64,000 nucleotides of DNA from an uncultured Hyphomonas sp. (GTDB lineage Bacteria > Pseudomonadota > Alphaproteobacteria > Caulobacterales > Hyphomonadaceae). The notes beneath the pieces are model-generated. The model worked only from the letters and a program-made list of their open reading frames with translations. It was not told the DNA's origin and did no database searches. Position numbers and translations under genes: made by a program. Shown one piece after another: positions 21,105-26,898 of this stretch. Each line of letters opens with the position of its first letter. Positions within the stretch are counted from its first letter, which is position 1. Where the stretch lies: the NCBI RefSeq assembly GCF_963976075.1, contig NZ_CAXBJH010000001.1. One strand, written 5' to 3'.

Positions 21105-21137
21105 AAAAACAAAAACCCCGACCTTTCGGCCGGGGTT
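21105..21137 (-). terminator. intrinsic terminator after ctrA
   Basis: Minus strand AACCCCGGCC-GAAA-GGTCGGGGTT followed by a T-rich tail. Confidence 0.85.
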
Positions 21138-21171
21138 CGGGAAGCACTCTTAAAGCTTCAGATCGAGGGCG

Positions 21172-21885
21172 TCAGGCCGCCTCTTCGACTTCCGCCGTCT
21201 TGGAGCTAGGGCGTGGATCCCGCAGCACATAGCCGCGGCCCCAGACCGTCTCGATATAGTGATTGCCGTTGGTGGCATTCTGCAGCTTCTTGCGCAGTTT
21301 GCAGATGAAGACGTCGATGATCTTCAGTTCCGGCTCGTCCATACCGCCATAAAGGTGGTTGAGGAACATTTCCTTGGTCAGCGTCGTGCCCTTCCGGAGG
21401 GAGAGCAGTTCGAACATCTGGTATTCCTTGCCGGTCAGGTGAACGCGCTCTTCGTCCACTTCCACCGTCTTGGCGTCCAGATTGACAATGATCTCACCCG
21501 TGCGGATCACGCTCTCGGCATGGCCTTTGGAGCGGCGCACAATGGCGGTGATGCGGGCGATCAGCTCGTCCTTGTTGAACGGCTTGGTGAGATAGTCATC
21601 GGCGCCGTAGCCGAGCGTCTTCACCTTCGCTTCAATGTCCGGATTGCCGGAAAGGATCATCACAGGCGTGTTCACACGGCCCATGCGCAGCTGTTTGAGC
21701 ACTTCGTACCCGGAAATATCAGGCAGGGAGAGGTCGAGCACGATCATGTCGTACTCATACACTTTGCCAAGATCCACGCCCTCTTCGCCGAGGTCGGTGG
21801 TGTAGATGTTGAAGCCTGCAGCCTTCAGCATCAACTCGATGGAACGAGCCACCGCACTATCGTCTTCAATCAGCAGGACGCGCAT
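21172..21885 (-). CDS. ctrA: cell-cycle master response regulator CtrA
   Basis: MRVLLIEDD...TTDLGEEG...[51 protein letters not shown]. Confidence 0.98.
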
Positions 21886-21897
21886 CTCTCGTCTCCC

Positions 21898-21975
21898 GAA
21901 TCATCATTACGACCAAGCTAGCCGCATTTCCTGTCAATGTGAATCCTACGAGCTGTTCCTTTAACGAAGGTTAAC
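21898..21975. promoter_or_regulatory. ctrA promoter region with two GANTC sites and a TTAA-N6-TTAAC box
   Basis: GAATC at 21898 and 21941; TTAA-CGAAGG-TTAAC at 21961-21975. Confidence 0.65.
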
Positions 21976-22020: not shown

Positions 22021-22860
22021 TTAATAGCCAAGATCAGCACCCTGGCGGCTACCAATCAGCATCTGTGAGATGGCGATTGCGTCCTGGATCGGCTGTGCCT
22101 GCTGGTCTGTGGAGATCAGCGTCTTCTGGCAGCGGATCGCATCACGCACCTTTGGATCCCGCATCACGGTCCCTGCCAGGTGAGGACGGAAGCCGAGGAA
22201 TGTCTGACAAGCACGGGCAATCGCTTCATAGGTGCGCTGACCTGCGGCCCGGGACTCGGCCTGGTTGATACAAATGACGGGTTCGACGTTCGGCGCATAG
22301 CCGCGCAGGACCTTGATGAAGGCATACGCATCCGTCATCGAGGTCGGCTCGTCGGTAATCACCATGAGCGCCTTGTCGGCAGCCCGTGCGAGACGCATGC
22401 AGTTCGCTTCGATCCCGGCGCCGAGATCGACCACCACTTGATCGTATTGCAGCGCCAAAGCAGACAGGCCCGCGGCGAGGCGGGCAACTTCTTCGGGGGG
22501 CAGTTCAGCCAGCGCACCGGAGCCGGATCGGCCCGGCAGCACGTCAAAGCCGCCATCCGCCGCGCCGCCATCAACTGGCGTCACCGCATCATCCAGTTCG
22601 ACCCAGCCGGCGATCACCGCAGCGAGGTCTGTTTCCGGTGCAATACCCAGCTGGACGTCGACATTGGCCAGGCCAAGGTCGCCATCCACCAGCAGCGTGC
22701 GCTTGCCGGCCTGTGCGAATGCGGAGGCCAGTGTGATGGCCATGAAGGTCTTGCCAACACCGCCCTTGCCACTGGCAACGGCAATGATCGAGGCTGGCGC
22801 GACGCGCGGAGTCGGGCGTTGGGACGGCCGTTCCTGCGATTTTCGAAGCATGAAGCTCAT
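22021..22860 (-). CDS. flhG: MinD/FlhG (FleN/MotR)-type ATPase
   Basis: Deviant Walker A GKGGVGKT, DGDLGLANVD, VVDLGAG, EPTS.TDAY; directly downstream of flhF. Confidence 0.8.
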   Translation of the reverse strand: MSFMLRKSQERPSQRPTPRVAPASIIAVASGKGGVGKTFMAITLASAFAQAGKRTLLVDGDLGLANVDVQLGIAPETDLAAVIAGWVELDDAVTPVDGGAADGGFDVLPGRSGSGALAELPPEEVARLAAGLSALALQYDQVVVDLGAGIEANCMRLARAADKALMVITDEPTSMTDAYAFIKVLRGYAPNVEPVICINQAESRAAGQRTYEAIARACQTFLGFRPHLAGTVMRDPKVRDAIRCQKTLISTDQQAQPIQDAIAISQMLIGSRQGADLGY

Positions 22861-22864
22861 AAGT

Positions 22865-23875
22865 CTACGCAGCTCCTTTCAGGGCGATGACATCGCCTGG
22901 GGCGTCTTCCATCAACAAGGCAGCCAACCGGGAAGGCGCTGCCGGCACCAATCCGCCGCCGATGAAAGGCGTAACGGCAAGGTGTGAGAAGGCGATGCCC
23001 GCCGAGGACAGGGCGGAGATGGCCCCTCCCCGTCTGCGGGCGATATCGAGTTTTGTGAGAATGGCGCGGCGAATGCCGGCGCGGGCAAAGATGCGGGCTG
23101 CATCTGCCTGATCTTCCGGATGGCCTTCGGCCGACATGACGAGCACGGGCTCGGCGCGCACGACCTGGATCAGGTCCTGCAGGCTGTCCATGTCGTCCTG
23201 GTCGAATGGATTGATCGAGGGCAGGTCGATGACGCAGCGATGTCCGGCGTCGCGCGCGGCGCGCAGCATGTCGAACAGGGCATCCGGCGTGGTGGCGGTG
23301 CGGATCTGGCCCCGCTCTTGCTCCAGATAGGCGGCCAGCTGTGCACCGCCGGCCGTGCCGTCGAGGTCAGCTGCCACCGGCAGGATGGCCGTGCGGGCCA
23401 CAGCCGCGCGACGGGTCAGCTTGGCCGCGGTTGCGGTACGGCCATGCCCCGGAGGGCCAATCAGGATGATATCTTTTTCCATACGCGCCGCGATGGGGTC
23501 GCAGGTCACGATGCGCTCAAGTCCGGCGGCAATCGATTCCTCTGGCGAATCGCCTGGAATGGCGTTCTGGCCAGCGCCTTCATGCGCCACTCGCTCGGCA
23601 AAGCGTTTGGGCGCACCATGCCATAGCAGGGCGTCGCGCACACGACTGTAGAGGGGGTTTTCGGATCCGCGGCCATGTCCGGCGCCACGCGCCTCTCGCA
23701 GGAACAGCGGCTCGCTTGGAACCACGCCGCCTCCGAGTTTGTCGGTTGCCGCGCGAACTTCCACCCCACCCTCGATCTCCCGTTCGGACAGGATGACGGC
23801 GTCAGCTCCCATTTCGGCAAAAATCATCGCTTTGGCGGCCTCAAGGGACTCCGCGGCGAACATCTTCATGCGCAT
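22865..23875 (-). CDS. flhF: FlhF-like SRP-family GTPase with degenerate G motifs
   Basis: FlhF-type N-terminus (F.A.S...A...I..EMG.DAVILS.R), GPPGHGRT, TKLD. Confidence 0.8.
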   Translation of the reverse strand: MRMKMFAAESLEAAKAMIFAEMGADAVILSEREIEGGVEVRAATDKLGGGVVPSEPLFLREARGAGHGRGSENPLYSRVRDALLWHGAPKRFAERVAHEGAGQNAIPGDSPEESIAAGLERIVTCDPIAARMEKDIILIGPPGHGRTATAAKLTRRAAVARTAILPVAADLDGTAGGAQLAAYLEQERGQIRTATTPDALFDMLRAARDAGHRCVIDLPSINPFDQDDMDSLQDLIQVVRAEPVLVMSAEGHPEDQADAARIFARAGIRRAILTKLDIARRRGGAISALSSAGIAFSHLAVTPFIGGGLVPAAPSRLAALLMEDAPGDVIALKGAA

Positions 23876-24041: not shown

Positions 24042-24308
24042 TCAGGCAGCAGCGCGATCGTCGACGATTTCCGACAGAGTCACGCCCAATTGGCCATCGG
24101 CTATGACCAGCTTGCCCCGCGCCATCAGGCGATCCGACAGATAGATATCGACCGGCTCATCGGTATGGCGCTCCAGCGCGACGATGTCGCCTTCGGCCAT
24201 CGCCATCAATTCCTCGATCGGCATGCGCATTTCGCCGAGAACCACATCCACCCGGACAGGCACATCCATCAGGCTTTTCTTCAGCGCGGGATTGGCAGAA
24301 TCAGTCAT
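24042..24308 (-). CDS. fliN: flagellar C-ring protein FliN (SPOA domain)
   Basis: DVPVRV.VVLG..RM.I.EL.....GD.V.L.R...EPVDI......ARG..V...GQLGV.L.EI. Confidence 0.88.
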   Translation of the reverse strand: MTDSANPALKKSLMDVPVRVDVVLGEMRMPIEELMAMAEGDIVALERHTDEPVDIYLSDRLMARGKLVIADGQLGVTLSEIVDDRAAA

Positions 24309-24709
24309 GGCTTTCCTTCAGGTGCAACACGCTTCAGGGATTGCTGGGCATCGAACAGATCGCCCTGCCCGTCGAGAATGGTGCGGGCTGTAGCCCTTAT
24401 TAACGCATGGGCCCGGTCACTGAAACCCTCGTCATACGCGCAGGCCTCCAGATGGCCGGTCAGCGCCACCAGATTGGCGAGCGCCTCGTTGAGCGCATTC
24501 GTGACGCCTTGCAAGCGTTCGGTTTCGGCGCGGGCCTCTTCTGTCCGCACAGAGGCGGCGCCCTCAGCCCGGGCTTCGGCCAGCATGTCCAGCAATTCCG
24601 GCGTGGTCAGCTTCACCGGCGGGTCGATCTCGACCGGGGCCGGCGCGCTTGCGCTGAAATCGCTGCGGAAGTCGAAAGGGGTCACGGATTTGACGGCGCG
24701 ATGGATCAT
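24305..24709 (-). CDS. short FlbE/FliH-like protein (N-terminal part only)
   Basis: Position between fliG and fliN; N-terminal FDF motif and AEARAEG coiled coil; only 134 aa. Confidence 0.6.
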   Translation of the reverse strand: MIHRAVKSVTPFDFRSDFSASAPAPVEIDPPVKLTTPELLDMLAEARAEGAASVRTEEARAETERLQGVTNALNEALANLVALTGHLEACAYDEGFSDRAHALIRATARTILDGQGDLFDAQQSLKRVAPEGKP

Positions 24710-25635
24710 TCGACGAGTTCGTCCTCGTCTTGCGGGCGTCCGGCGCGAATGTCTCCGCGCTCGATCAGGGTGCGGGCCAGATCGACCAGTTCCATCCGGG
24801 CGGTCTCGATCTCGCTGCGACGCACCGCGCCGAGCATGTCGATTTCCTCGCGCAGCAATTCGCCCGCGCGCTGCGTCATGTTGCGGAAGAAGGCCGCACG
24901 GGTTTCCTCGCGCGCGCCCTTCAGCGCATAGGTAAGGCGCGTCCGGTCCGCAGCCGACAGCAGGGTCTGCAGGCCGCCGGCGTCCAGATGAGCGAGATCA
25001 TCAAAGGTGAACATCAGCGCACGGACCCGCTCGCCGGATCCCGGCACGGCGGATTCAAGCGCAGACAAGAGGCTCTGTTCGGCGCGGCTGTCCATCCGGT
25101 CGAAAATGCGGGCGACGCCTTCATGGCCCCCGGTGCGCGCAGCTGGCGCAGCGCTTGTCATCCAGGCCGACACGGAGGCTTCGAGCGCAGCGATGGCACT
25201 GGCATGGGCAGGCCCGAGATGCAGCAGGCGTTGCATCACATCGACGGCCACAGGTTTCTCAATGGCCTTAAGGAGGCGTGCAGAGGCCTTGCCGTCCAGA
25301 CGCGACAGCATCAGGGCAAGCGCCTGAGGGTGTTGTCCCTGTGCCAATTGCAACAGGTCGCGCGTTTCCAGGGCGGACACTTTCGCCCAGACCGGCGCCT
25401 CGGGCGTGGCCTGCGCGCCGGTGCGCTCATGCGCCTGTTTGTAGCTCGCCAGCGTGTCTGCTTCATCGCGAAGATCGTCGTCGAGCGCGTCCATTGCCGC
25501 CGACAAAGCGCGGGCTTCCTGCGGGCTCAATTCGTTCCAGACGGGCGCGGCTTCCGGACCAAGCGCACGCATCAGGCGAGCGGACTTGGCGAGGCCAGTC
25601 GCGCCGCTCGGACGGGCAATCGCCAGCACGCTCAT
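24706..25635 (-). CDS. fliG: flagellar motor switch protein FliG
   Basis: HPQ..AL.LS.L, MFTFDDL..LD, ALKGA, F.RNM.QRAGELLREEI...G.VR. Confidence 0.9.
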   Translation of the reverse strand: MSVLAIARPSGATGLAKSARLMRALGPEAAPVWNELSPQEARALSAAMDALDDDLRDEADTLASYKQAHERTGAQATPEAPVWAKVSALETRDLLQLAQGQHPQALALMLSRLDGKASARLLKAIEKPVAVDVMQRLLHLGPAHASAIAALEASVSAWMTSAAPAARTGGHEGVARIFDRMDSRAEQSLLSALESAVPGSGERVRALMFTFDDLAHLDAGGLQTLLSAADRTRLTYALKGAREETRAAFFRNMTQRAGELLREEIDMLGAVRRSEIETARMELVDLARTLIERGDIRAGRPQDEDELVE

Positions 25636-26315
25636 GCGGCGTCTCCTTCACCGCGCATCCAGCTGCGCAGGATCGAGGCTGTGCGGGCCGGATCCTTTCG
25701 GACCAGCGACGCGGCATCCGGGTCTGGCTGGCGAACAGGACGGGGCTTGGGCGCAGAGATGATATCTGCCGTATCGACGCGCGCGGGCTTTCGCTCGGCA
25801 GGCGCACCAGCGCCCTTCCCTTCCGGCGCGATCTCAAGCGGGGCGCGAAACCCGACCCAGGCCAGCAGGCCGCAGAGCAGCGCATAGAGACCAAGCTCTG
25901 TCCAGCCGGTCGCATCGGGGCGCCCGGCGACGCCGCGGGCAAAATCGGCCTGTTCAATGATCAATTGGTCACCGGCTTCCGGCGATAGCAGGATGGCCGA
26001 CGTTGCGAGGCGTTGCAGGGTGGGGGCGGTCTCGCTCGCATCAGAGGCCAGCAGGATCAGGACTGACCGGCCAGAGCCGCCAGTGCCCATCACAGACAGG
26101 CGGATGTTTCCCTTGCCGGCAACCGGTTCGAGGATGCCCATCAGGGAGGTCTCGACGGCTGAGCCCGGCACCCAGGCCTCAACCGGCTGGGTAAACAGGT
26201 CGCTGGCGCGCCAGCTGCCCAGCACGCCTGCGATCACAAGCGCAAACAGCGCGACTGCTCGTGTGGAGAGCATCGCGCTGCCTTGGAATTTCGCAAGCCT
26301 GTGGTCCATCAGCAA
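25632..26315 (-). CDS. miniature FliF-like MS-ring protein (227 aa)
   Basis: Two TM helices; ILEPVAGKGNIRLSV and LATSAILLSPEAGDQLII (RBM3-like halves); C-terminal DPARTASILRSW; overlaps the fliG start. Confidence 0.75.
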   Translation of the reverse strand: MLMDHRLAKFQGSAMLSTRAVALFALVIAGVLGSWRASDLFTQPVEAWVPGSAVETSLMGILEPVAGKGNIRLSVMGTGGSGRSVLILLASDASETAPTLQRLATSAILLSPEAGDQLIIEQADFARGVAGRPDATGWTELGLYALLCGLLAWVGFRAPLEIAPEGKGAGAPAERKPARVDTADIISAPKPRPVRQPDPDAASLVRKDPARTASILRSWMRGEGDAA

Positions 26316-26381
26316 CTCCCGGCGCCGGGTACATTTCCGGCATTCAGGACCATTGATAGGCGCTGGCGTGTAAATTTGTGT

Positions 26382-26403
26382 TTAACGGAAAGGATTCCGT
26401 TAA
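26382..26403. promoter_or_regulatory. palindromic operator upstream of mini-fliF
   Basis: TTAACGGAA-AGGA-TTCCGTTAA perfect 9-bp inverted repeat containing GATTC (26393-26397). Confidence 0.55.
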
Positions 26404-26415
26404 CCGTAAAGCGTC

Positions 26416-26688
26416 CTAGCGGCGATATTGCTGCAGACGGGTGGTCCGCAGACCCTTGGTTCCGTGACGGGAGTAAAGCTTCTCCCAGGTCTCGAATTCT
26501 TCATCGCTCAGGCTATAGCGATCGCAGGCTGCCTTGCGGGTCAGAAGACCGCCGGAAACTGCTGCAACGACTTCAGCCTTGCGACGGGTAACCCAACGGG
26601 AAATGTTGGGTGACGGAAGATCCGCCAGGGTCAGCATCTGGCCATCCGGGCCCGGGACGCTGAGGTTACGTGCATTGTGCTGTTCCAT
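26416..26688 (-). CDS. sciP: CtrA inhibitor SciP (DUF1153)
   Basis: GPDG..LTLADLP.P...RWV.RRKAEVVAAV.GGLL...AC.RY.LS.EEF..W......G..GLR.TR.Q.YR. Confidence 0.95.
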   Translation of the reverse strand: MEQHNARNLSVPGPDGQMLTLADLPSPNISRWVTRRKAEVVAAVSGGLLTRKAACDRYSLSDEEFETWEKLYSRHGTKGLRTTRLQQYRR

Positions 26689-26898
26689 GTCCACACCATT
26701 CTTGTTGTCGTGACAGGACTGCCCGGCTTCTCCGGGCGCCATGTCGTCCAACATACAGTGTGGGTTTTAAGCCGAGGCATAAGCGACCTCGTCAGTTTCA
26801 CTCCCCGGGTTAGAAGAATGTTTGTAAAGCTGTACCGGGCCGGGACAATCACCGGGAATCAGCTGGATTCATTACAGAAAATATAATTTACGCCCGGA

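Follow-up and report, generated by a model that had tools for sequence, protein, structure and literature searches.

A family of miniature FliF homologues in Hyphomonadaceae-like genomes keeps the S-ring core and the C-terminal helices and is encoded with trimmed flagellar partners

The building of a flagellum begins with FliF, which in its canonical form makes a ring of some 34 subunits bearing the rod and the export gate. In the window studied here, a 64,000-nucleotide stretch of DNA from an uncultured Hyphomonas sp., one open reading frame had been interpreted from the letters alone as a FliF cut at its domain boundaries, reduced to a single ring domain and a FliG anchor, and produced by redesign rather than by decay. 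Is this mini-FliF a genuine gene, which parts of FliF does it retain, and what could such a protein build in the inner membrane?

What mini-FliF retains of FliF

The ORF lies on the minus strand (25632..26315); its 227 codons are counted from a TTG at 26315, its stop occupies 25632-25634, and all the sequence features named in the sequence-only reading are present in it. A GGGAG ribosome-binding site (26320-26316) is located 6 nt ahead of an ATG at 26309 and 0 nt ahead of the TTG, and because of this spacing we prefer the ATG, which is probably the start and gives a protein of 225 aa, the size of the database orthologues. The composition of the ORF is coding-like (GC3 of 0.74 vs GC2 of 0.56) and its dN/dS is 0.051 against Hyphomonas sp. 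L-53-1-40; mini-FliF is a real gene under purifying selection. There is no room for an upstream extension or a frameshifted N-terminal half, the end of sciP being only about 100 nt upstream, and the long antisense ORFs across the locus (e.g. 24730-25887, plus strand) are artefacts of the high G+C.

The Pfam models, PF01514 and PF08345 included, and the NCBIfam FliF models return nothing for mini-FliF, which stays below every threshold. When 142 mini-FliFs are compared by hhalign with 57 canonical FliFs of alphaproteobacteria, a single collinear match results (98.4%, E 9.5e-15). It pairs residues 53-227 with FliF 261-594 and is interrupted by one large gap, at the position of the β-collar: RBM3a is matched by residues 53-76 and RBM3b by 83-125, and the match continues through TM2 and the FliG-binding helices at the C-terminus. 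Taken separately, RBM3a and RBM3b reach E-values of 2e-6 and 6.6e-8, and upstream of each canonical FliG the mini-FliF HMM picks up the full-length FliF (E 1e-7 to 1e-17). As had been proposed, mini-FliF is homologous to the S-ring core (RBM3a and RBM3b), TM2 and C-terminal helices of FliF. Residues 52-76 align to Salmonella FliF 245-269, and the β-collar of the latter comprises residues 271-381 (PMC11739650); the gap thus falls at the RBM3a/β-collar border. The expected absence of RBM1 and RBM2 agrees with the search for PF01514, the model of these two domains, which has no match at E<=1 in mini-FliF and none in four further orthologues; canonical neighbours score 206-210 bits. From synteny and alignment we infer that RBM1, RBM2 and the β-collar would have been deleted.

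The AlphaFold model, built on a 123-sequence alignment (17 close homologues alone gave a pLDDT of 43), has an overall pLDDT of 82.4 and runs through a TM helix, an α-β-β-α-β domain, a second TM helix and C-terminal helices. Both TM helices are predicted at a pLDDT of about 90: TM1, residues 13-41 (26193..26279, minus strand, as are all the following segments; pLDDT ~93), and TM2, residues 135-156 (25848..25913), which is aligned to the TM2 of FliF. TM1 forms the N-terminus, which has no lipobox cysteine, and only about 11 residues separate this helix from the periplasmic S-ring (RBM3 core) domain, residues 53-123 (25947..26159), on which hhalign to RBM3a/RBM3b, AlphaFold (pLDDT 87-96) and Foldseek converge. 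This domain is composed of α1 (53-66), β1 (71-77), β2 (83-90), α2 (91-108) and β3 (117-123), and its two halves read MGILEPVAGKGNIRLSV, then MGTGGSG, then RSVLILL..., continuing to ...LQRLATSAILLSPEAGDQLIIEQADF. The short β1-β2 turn MGTGGSG (residues 76-82, 26070..26090) coincides with the single large gap of the profile alignment, and this turn of 5-7 residues stands where canonical FliF has a β-collar of about 110 aa, so that the collar is indeed missing between the RBM3 halves. Beyond TM2, a variable cytoplasmic linker of low confidence (residues 157-199, 25719..25847; poorly conserved columns, pLDDT 56-69) leads to the C-terminal helices (residues 200-220, 25656..25718), which align to Salmonella FliF 491-556 and to alphaproteobacterial FliF C-termini. 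These helices, the best conserved part across the family, contain DPARTASILRSW at residues 208-219 and display the motif AAxLxxxDPxxxAxxxRxWM in the predicted FliG-binding region.

FliF S-rings are the best Foldseek matches of this RBM fold, modelled at a pLDDT of 82: the top PDB matches are all FliF (6sd3, 7cg7, 6scn, 8z5v, 7d84, 8z4g, 8ftf), with modest E-values of 4e-3 to 2e-2 and with generic α-β-β-α-β folds (KH domains, CDF C-terminal domains, EscJ, PrgK) close to them in score. The injectisome ring lipoproteins SctJ/YscJ/PrgK/EscJ share the α-β-β-α-β RBM fold, EscJ and PrgK being lower-ranked in Foldseek; SctJ, however, has RBM1, RBM2 and a lipobox, and neither an RBM3 nor a FliG-binding tail, whereas the mini-FliF domain aligns to RBM3, unlike the SctJ RBMs, in a protein devoid of lipobox and PF01514. 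With FliF (PF01514 + PF08345; Salmonella P15928; PDB 6SCN/6SD3/7CG7) mini-FliF has in common the two TM helices around a periplasmic region and a homologous, collinear S-ring core and C-terminal helices; it differs by its size (225 aa vs ~535-595 aa) and by the lack of RBM1, RBM2 and β-collar, that is, of anything for the export gate or the rod.

A trimmed operon in the ancestral fliF neighbourhood

Mini-fliF opens a translationally coupled operon, mini-fliF, fliG', fliH'-like, fliN', whose genes are joined by ATGA overlaps and whose four products are all trimmed. The overlap with the fliG start, already noticed in the sequence, is the ATGA at 25632-25635 shared by the mini-FliF stop and the fliG-like start. 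FliG' (309 aa, 24706..25635, minus strand) matches Pfam FliG_N over half of the model (PF14842, 32 bits), FliG_M (PF14841, 41 bits) and FliG_C (PF01706, 114 bits); it scores 148 bits against TIGR00207, under the cutoff of 227, and in a global hhalign to canonical FliG it lacks about 28 aa at the end of the N domain. The next product, X (134 aa, 24305..24709, minus strand; 4-nt overlap with each neighbouring gene), has no Pfam match, and hhalign to the FliH proteins (PF02108) of canonical loci gives 78.8% and E 1.6e-5, X 1-129 corresponding to FliH columns 6-138 of 239, the N-terminal part only. On this profile match X is probably an N-terminal FliH fragment, an assignment in which we have moderate confidence. 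FliN' (88 aa, 24042..24308, minus strand; PF01052, TIGR02480) consists of the SpoA core only, which corresponds to the last 77 residues of canonical FliN.

On the same strand follow FlhF' (336 aa, 22865..23875), with an SRP-type GTPase fold and a variant P-loop, GPPGHGRT, whose K-to-R change is conserved in 16/16 orthologues; the FlhG'/MinD-like ATPase (279 aa, 22021..22860), 73-98% identical across the family; and ctrA (21172..21885; NF045991, 409 bits), the last gene of the conserved block, after which a terminator scan finds a terminator-like hairpin (21113-21138). Immediately upstream of mini-FliF lies sciP (DUF1153; 26416..26754, minus strand; NF051866, PF06627), and the intergenic region between them (26371..26403) carries two elements: at 26371-26385 a near-CtrA box, which departs from TTAA-N7-TTAA by 1 mismatch, and at 26382-26403 a perfect inverted repeat of 9 bp, TTAACGGAA/TTCCGTTAA.

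The order sciP, mini-FliF, FliG', X, FliN' recurs in every locus examined, usually followed by FlhF', FlhG' and ctrA, and wherever the contig extends far enough, a mini-FliF ORF immediately precedes the FliG' gene. Hyphomonas, Henriciella and unclassified MAGs all share this gene order, even where identity falls to 21-27%. Canonical loci present sciP, FliF (535-595 aa), FliG, FliH and FliN, and sciP adjoins a full-length fliF in Bradyrhizobium, Pleomorphomonas and others. The vicinity of sciP and fliF is an ancestral neighbourhood, and the mini-FliF operon is the positional descendant of the alphaproteobacterial sciP-fliF-fliG-fliH-fliN cluster; like fliF in other alphaproteobacteria, mini-fliF stands beside sciP, directly upstream of a fliG homologue to which it is coupled.

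Mini-FliF is not special to the source genome and defines a family with trimmed FliG, FliH-like and FliN partners. Word-index homologue searches reached Hyphomonas and a few others only; the exhaustive HMM search uncovered the whole family, 124 clusters of orthologues at 50% identity, nearly all of 205-235 aa, which is larger than the sequence-only reading had assumed and which we encountered only in Hyphomonadaceae-like genomes. Neither Pfam nor NCBIfam has a model for this family, and literature searches on short, truncated or paralogous FliF/FliG in alphaproteobacteria yielded no description of it.

Could the ORF be a functionless relic of the ancestral fliF, a pseudogene in progress? The operon is a remnant, the other flagellar partners having disappeared from around it, one frameshifted copy exists (1 nt, in H. 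oceanitis SCH89), and evolution is faster in mini-FliF, FliG' and X than in FliN', FlhF', FlhG' and CtrA. The analyses nevertheless argue strongly against decay: that copy is the only frameshifted one seen, the dN/dS is 0.05, the length is kept despite strong divergence, with the same architecture and constant truncation points across the 124 clusters, the motifs are conserved, and the gene remains translationally coupled and expressed. We give the relic next to no credence, and the proposal of a redesign holds.

The expression data are thin: in H. neptunium, HNE_1391-1393 are expressed in the motile organism with modest RNA-seq counts, and the remaining data are low-depth metatranscriptome contigs. 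In this species mini-FliF coexists with the canonical FliF: the motility island contains a full-length fliF (HNE_0242), fliN (HNE_0244) and fliG (HNE_0246), and a second locus contains HNE_1390 (sciP), HNE_1391 (mini-FliF) and HNE_1392 (FliG), the gene order of locus L015 matching HNE_1390-1396. A full-length fliF thus exists elsewhere in the H. neptunium genome, and in this species a separate full gene set builds the canonical flagellum. That mini-FliF would be the only MS-ring protein of the organism, building a working flagellum from the ancestral fliF position beside sciP and fliG, is accordingly hard to believe, since it has neither RBM1/RBM2 for FliPQR nor a collar for the rod, and since in H. 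neptunium the island supplies canonical FliF, FliG and FliN. Two FliF, FliG and FliN sets per genome, one of them CtrA-linked, also occur in Cereibacter/Rhodobacter sphaeroides as fla1 and fla2, but there both are complete and each builds a flagellum, whereas the mini-FliF set consists of four trimmed proteins with a variant FlhF and FlhG. The H. neptunium island itself resembles fla2 in its flgB-fliI arrangement (PMC6180460). A 'hat-like' fT3SS-related structure has been seen in H. neptunium (PMC9380563); we rejected a link between it and mini-FliF, as this structure is independent of FliF and present in many species outside the alphaproteobacteria, whereas mini-FliF is confined here to Hyphomonadaceae-like genomes.

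Proposed model for the mini-FliF assembly

The model that we propose, with a probability of roughly 70% for the whole, is that of a four-module FliF-derived protein on which the products of the trimmed operon would build a rod-less and secretion-less platform. Mini-FliF is an inner-membrane protein cut to TM1, one periplasmic S-ring domain, TM2 and the cytoplasmic C-terminal helices, without the export-gate housing (RBM1, RBM2) and the rod grip (β-collar). In FliF, these C-terminal helices are the part that docks with the FliG N domain. For mini-FliF we infer ring formation, FliG' binding and function as follows: the S-ring domain would drive its oligomerisation in the inner membrane, and the protein would tether FliG' and, via FliG', also FliN' and the FliH fragment, thereby giving an MS/C-ring-like assembly. 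FlhF' and FlhG' may position or regulate this platform, and as its candidate outputs we consider scaffolding, either polar or for the placement of flagella, and the engagement of stators. The mini-FliF cluster encodes no FliM, and therefore a canonical C-ring is impossible from these genes alone; the 'rod-less C-ring machine' suggested by the sequence-only reading is plausible.

RBM3 by itself forms rings and drives MS-ring assembly (PMC8786727). In the SpoIIIAG/SpoIIIAH sporulation channel a single membrane-attached RBM forms rings, a precedent showing that one RBM can suffice, although these proteins have no sequence relation to mini-FliF, another context and no FliG partner; SpoIIIAG has a β-triangle insertion, whereas mini-FliF has lost its insertion. 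Against the oligomerisation of a collar-less S-ring, however, much of the inter-subunit contact in FliF comes from the collar barrel (PMC11739650). The loss of this major source of contacts, the conservation of the FliG-binding tail and the small domain above other parts, and the lack of FliM in the cluster would suit a protein that makes no ring and acts as a tether or regulator, a monomer or small oligomer holding or sequestering FliG' or the island FliG, maybe as an assembly checkpoint or an anti-FliG factor. We consider this rather improbable, because the domain that has been kept is precisely the S-ring core, which builds rings and is conserved rather than degenerate, because a conserved periplasmic RBM would be needless for a simple tether, and because the co-conserved FliN' and FliH fragment suggest a larger assembly.

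FlhF is known to capture FliF/FliG, and FlhG to bind C-ring proteins (PMC12826062); the module retains exactly these interactors. In 21 orthologues of FliG' the five stator-contact (torque-helix) charges are kept, as is most of the EHPQ motif that binds FliM. Together with the expression of HNE_1391-1393 in a motile organism, these observations could indicate that mini-FliF and FliG' serve the real flagellar motor as accessory subunits, co-assembling with or docking beside the island MS and C rings, for example by adding a stator-contacting FliG' or by coupling FlhF'/FlhG'. This is unlikely: the β-barrel of the canonical S-ring/collar cannot admit a collar-less subunit, and the H. neptunium mini operon is not in the CtrA regulon list alongside the motility island. 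Moreover, to our knowledge fla2-type and rhizobial flagellar systems work without a mini-FliF module, which we also count against it.

The platform of our model might even be an autonomous second, miniature rotor-like organelle of the Hyphomonadaceae, an extension that we advance only tentatively. An S-ring-only ring with FliG', FliN' and the FliH fragment, without secretion or rod, would be positioned by FlhF' (possibly GTPase-impaired) and FlhG', and would engage MotAB-type stators or serve as a polar, cell-cycle-linked landmark, e.g. for flagellum placement or bud polarity.

Significance for the Hyphomonadaceae

Structural biologists are actively studying the division of labour among the three RBMs and the collar of FliF in assembling the ring, housing the gate, holding the rod and docking FliG. 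Mini-FliF is a natural deletion experiment on this division, in which the S-ring core and the FliG anchor only are left, under purifying selection across a bacterial family. It offers a minimal system to ask whether the S-ring domain alone sets the ring size and nucleates FliG, and since H. neptunium can be manipulated genetically and has already been the subject of cryo-ET, the predictions of the model are directly testable. The mini-FliF set is a probable example of a flagellar core repurposed beyond secretion or propulsion; if the rotor-like organelle is true, it would be such a core with a non-motility function. More generally, the locus is a family-level marker of the replacement of an ancestral flagellar system by an island-encoded one.

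The mini-FliF gene and its relation to FliF

The minus-strand ORF that encodes mini-FliF (25632-26315) is present as the sequence-only reading gave it, and its composition is coding-like (GC3 0.74 versus GC2 0.56). Because the ribosome-binding site GGGAG abuts the TTG at 26315 and lies 6 nt 5' of the ATG at 26309, the protein is most likely 225 aa long, which is also the length of its database orthologues. Its stop codon overlaps the FliG' start in the sequence ATGA, and FliG', the 134-aa ORF X and FliN' are coupled by identical 4-nt overlaps. A lost N-terminal half 5' of the gene is ruled out, since the end of sciP, about 100 nt upstream, leaves no space for it. The long antisense ORFs spanning the locus (24730-25887 on the plus strand and similar ones, up to 385 aa) show no GC3 bias of the coding kind and arise as artefacts of the 62% G+C. 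The rest of the window is housekeeping chromosome (recR, recQ, clpP, rpoD, dnaG, carA, proC, lgt), and no further flagellar genes were found within its 64 kb beyond the mini-FliF locus.

No family was recognised in mini-FliF by Pfam or NCBIfam, and the sole match of the family profile to PDB sequences was a weak one (E 0.09) to Salmonella FliF, in two collinear stretches (mini-FliF 52-76 with FliF 245-269, and 157-220 with 491-556). When 1.84 billion representatives were searched exhaustively with the profile, a family of 124 clusters emerged, nearly all of 205-235 aa and matching end to end, with a few full-length FliFs in its tail. Compared profile to profile with four full-length FliFs, mini-FliF 99-227 matched RBM3b, TM2 and the C-terminus (97.8%, E 7.6e-13); in a separate alignment, the N-terminal part of its periplasmic domain matched RBM3a (E 2e-6). 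With larger profiles, built from 142 mini-FliFs and from 57 canonical alphaproteobacterial FliFs drawn from genome loci, one alignment paired mini-FliF 53-227 with FliF 261-594 (98.4%, E 9.5e-15), and its sole large gap coincides exactly with the canonical β-collar. Salmonella FliF comprises RBM1 (60-124), RBM2 (125-215), RBM3a (228-270), the collar (271-381) and RBM3b (382-438) (PMC11739650); set against these boundaries, the alignment places the mini-FliF junction at the RBM3a/collar border. Neither RBM1 nor RBM2 is present: TM1 and the S-ring domain are only about 11 residues apart. The profile evidence argues firmly that mini-FliF is a FliF derivative and bears out the earlier proposal that it combines the two RBM3 halves, TM2 and the C-terminus, with RBM1, RBM2 and the collar lost.

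The AlphaFold model likewise supports this anatomy. The pLDDT was 43 when 17 close homologues were supplied, and the input of 123 diverse family members gave a confident model (mean pLDDT 82.4; 87-96 across the periplasmic domain) with a predicted TM1 (residues 13-41), α1 (53-66), β1 (71-77), β2 (83-90), α2 (91-108), β3 (117-123), TM2 (135-156), a low-confidence linker and two C-terminal helices (200-220). In the Foldseek search of the PDB, the top ranks were occupied by FliF MS-ring/S-ring chains (6sd3, 7cg7, 6scn, 8z5v, 7d84, 8z4g, 8ftf; probability about 1.0, E 4e-3 to 2e-2), followed by generic α-β-β-α-β folds and EscJ/PrgK. The E-values are modest, in line with a domain of 70 residues, and the likeness to FliF that the sequence-only reading expected of the fold offers support, not stand-alone proof. 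The identification of mini-FliF as SctJ was rejected, as it has no lipobox and no PF01514 domain; that as a SpoIIIAG-like protein was also rejected.

Probable descent of the locus, and its trimmed neighbours

The genome scan for related loci, seeded with the FliG' alignment, resulted in two classes. In Class 1 (Hyphomonas, Henriciella, Hyphomonadaceae and unclassified marine MAGs), wherever the contig reaches, a mini-FliF of 211-233 aa lies directly 5' of a FliG' of 302-317 aa, which is followed by an ORF of 116-141 aa and a FliN' of 84-109 aa; sciP precedes this group, and FlhF', FlhG' and ctrA follow it in most cases. Two members at the far edge of the family have the identical core order. 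The short ORF, whose survey in Hyphomonadaceae had been suggested, recurs at near-constant length in the same locus order. The Class 2 loci (Bradyrhizobium, Pleomorphomonas, Terasakiella, Rhodopseudomonas and others) carry sciP, full-length FliF (535-595 aa, with PF01514 and PF08345), FliG (334-364 aa), FliH (about 206 aa, with PF02108) and FliN (110-144 aa), and their FliFs are matched by the mini-FliF HMM (E 1e-7 to 1e-17). The comparison of the two gene orders indicates that the Hyphomonadaceae locus is the positional counterpart of an ancestral sciP-linked fliF operon.

The invariant core across mini-FliF loci is sciP, mini-fliF, fliG', X, fliN'. The downstream flhF'-flhG'-ctrA block is missing in four loci of other genomes (L015, L021, L025, L089) and likewise in H. 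neptunium, whose FlhF homologue is HNE_0942; in L016-L018 and L024, 1-3 kb of DNA is inserted between the operon and this block. In L089, the most distant family member examined, a MotA-family gene (1-827; MotA_N and MotA_ExbB) lies about 8 kb 5' of the operon, a link that may be coincidental.

The neighbours of mini-FliF are trimmed or altered too. FliG' (24706-25635, minus strand) lacks about 28 residues from the final part of the FliG N domain; its five stator-contact (torque-helix) charges K239, R256, E263, E264 and R272 and most of the EHPQ motif, which reads QHPQ/EHPQ, are kept in 17-21 of 21 orthologues. X (24305-24709, minus), between FliG' and FliN', has no match in Pfam; it aligns (78.8%, E 1.6e-5) to the FliH that occupies this position in canonical loci, over the N-terminal two-thirds of that protein. 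In canonical FliH the C-terminal region binds the FliI ATPase, and X would be devoid of it. FliN' is the SpoA core alone. FlhF' (22865-23875, minus), beside the operon, has the P-loop GPPGHGRT, identical in 16/16 Hyphomonadaceae orthologues, the form in canonical alphaproteobacterial FlhFs being GPPGxGKT. A DTAG motif was not found in it, and this FlhF may have an impaired GTPase or be altered in some other way.

Selection, expression and regulation

With Hyphomonas sp. L-53-1-40 as the counterpart of the window, the Nei-Gojobori dN/dS of mini-FliF is 0.051. For the same pair, the values are 0.070 for FliG', 0.138 for X, 0.023 for FliN', 0.019 for FlhG' and for CtrA, and 0.036 for FlhF', highly conserved despite its Lys to Arg change; against H. 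beringensis, for which dS is saturated, mini-FliF gives 0.25. Its conservation is focused on the S-ring domain and the C-terminal motif, and the linker varies freely. The only disrupted copy found is that of H. oceanitis SCH89 (L020 6328-7004), where a 1-nt deletion just after TM2 divides the gene between two ORFs. The shifted frame still encodes the whole C-terminal motif, which suggests that the mutation is recent or that the sequence is in error. These data favour a functional rather than a decaying mini-FliF, in agreement with the redesign that had been proposed.

Leicht et al. 2020 list, in their supplementary data, the H. neptunium motility island and a second locus comprising sciP (HNE_1390), a hypothetical gene (HNE_1391), a 'putative FliG' (HNE_1392) and another hypothetical gene (HNE_1393) (PMC7200025). 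The L015 order (sciP, mini-FliF, FliG', X, FliN', an aromatic amino-acid hydroxylase, pth) fits the numbering from HNE_1390 to HNE_1396, which is pth, and thereby identifies HNE_1391 as mini-FliF. HNE_1391-1393 are expressed at modest levels and rise 1.5- to 2.1-fold, with weak p-values, upon divJ deletion; they are not listed in the direct CtrA regulon, and the adjoining sciP is strongly CtrA-dependent (PMC7200025). A full-length fliF elsewhere in the genome, raised by the sequence-only reading, is found in the H. neptunium motility island (PMC7200025) and would also exist in the window's own genome. Parts of mini-FliF and FliG' are represented by low-depth contigs in marine metatranscriptome data, ctrA being far deeper in the same run, which is supportive but not conclusive.

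The gap between sciP and mini-fliF contains, within 26371-26403, a near-CtrA box (TTAA-N7-TTAA, 1 mismatch) and a perfect 9-bp inverted repeat, TTAACGGAA-AGGA-TTCCGTTAA. A second such box lies 5' of ctrA (21960-21974); the whole 64 kb holds 5, versus 1.9 expected by chance. The sciP ORF (26416-26754, minus) is listed as 112 aa, and its true start is probably internal, since gene callers and orthologues give 88-108 aa.

Proposed working of the mini-FliF assembly

Mini-FliF retains the modules with which FliF builds the S-ring and docks FliG, and lacks those with which FliF houses FliPQR and holds the rod. RBM3 suffices for ring formation and drives the oligomerisation of the MS-ring, and in polar flagellates FliF requires helper proteins, for example FlhF (PMC8786727). 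FlhF, which binds to FliG, captures FliF at the cell pole, and FlhG is a binding partner of C-ring proteins (PMC12826062). In the model we propose, mini-FliF would oligomerise in the inner membrane and present its C-terminal helices to FliG', which would recruit FliN' and the putative FliH fragment X, while FlhF' and FlhG' would position or regulate the assembly. Such an assembly would be incapable of secretion or of bearing an axial structure. The model calls for caution, mainly because the cluster has no FliM gene and the inter-subunit contacts of the collar are lost.

Mini-FliF resembles the S-ring-plus-FliG-anchor part of FliF but fails three defining features, namely RBM1/RBM2, the collar and the curated family thresholds, and is therefore treated as a FliF-derived variant family and not as an ordinary FliF. 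No description of this family was found in a literature search, and some databases loosely label individual members 'FliF/YscJ' or 'M-ring C-terminal domain'. The assembly might serve as a scaffold at the pole or for placement, as a platform linked to the cell cycle, or as a ring that engages stators, and the family is of clear interest to cell biologists who work on flagella or on alphaproteobacteria.
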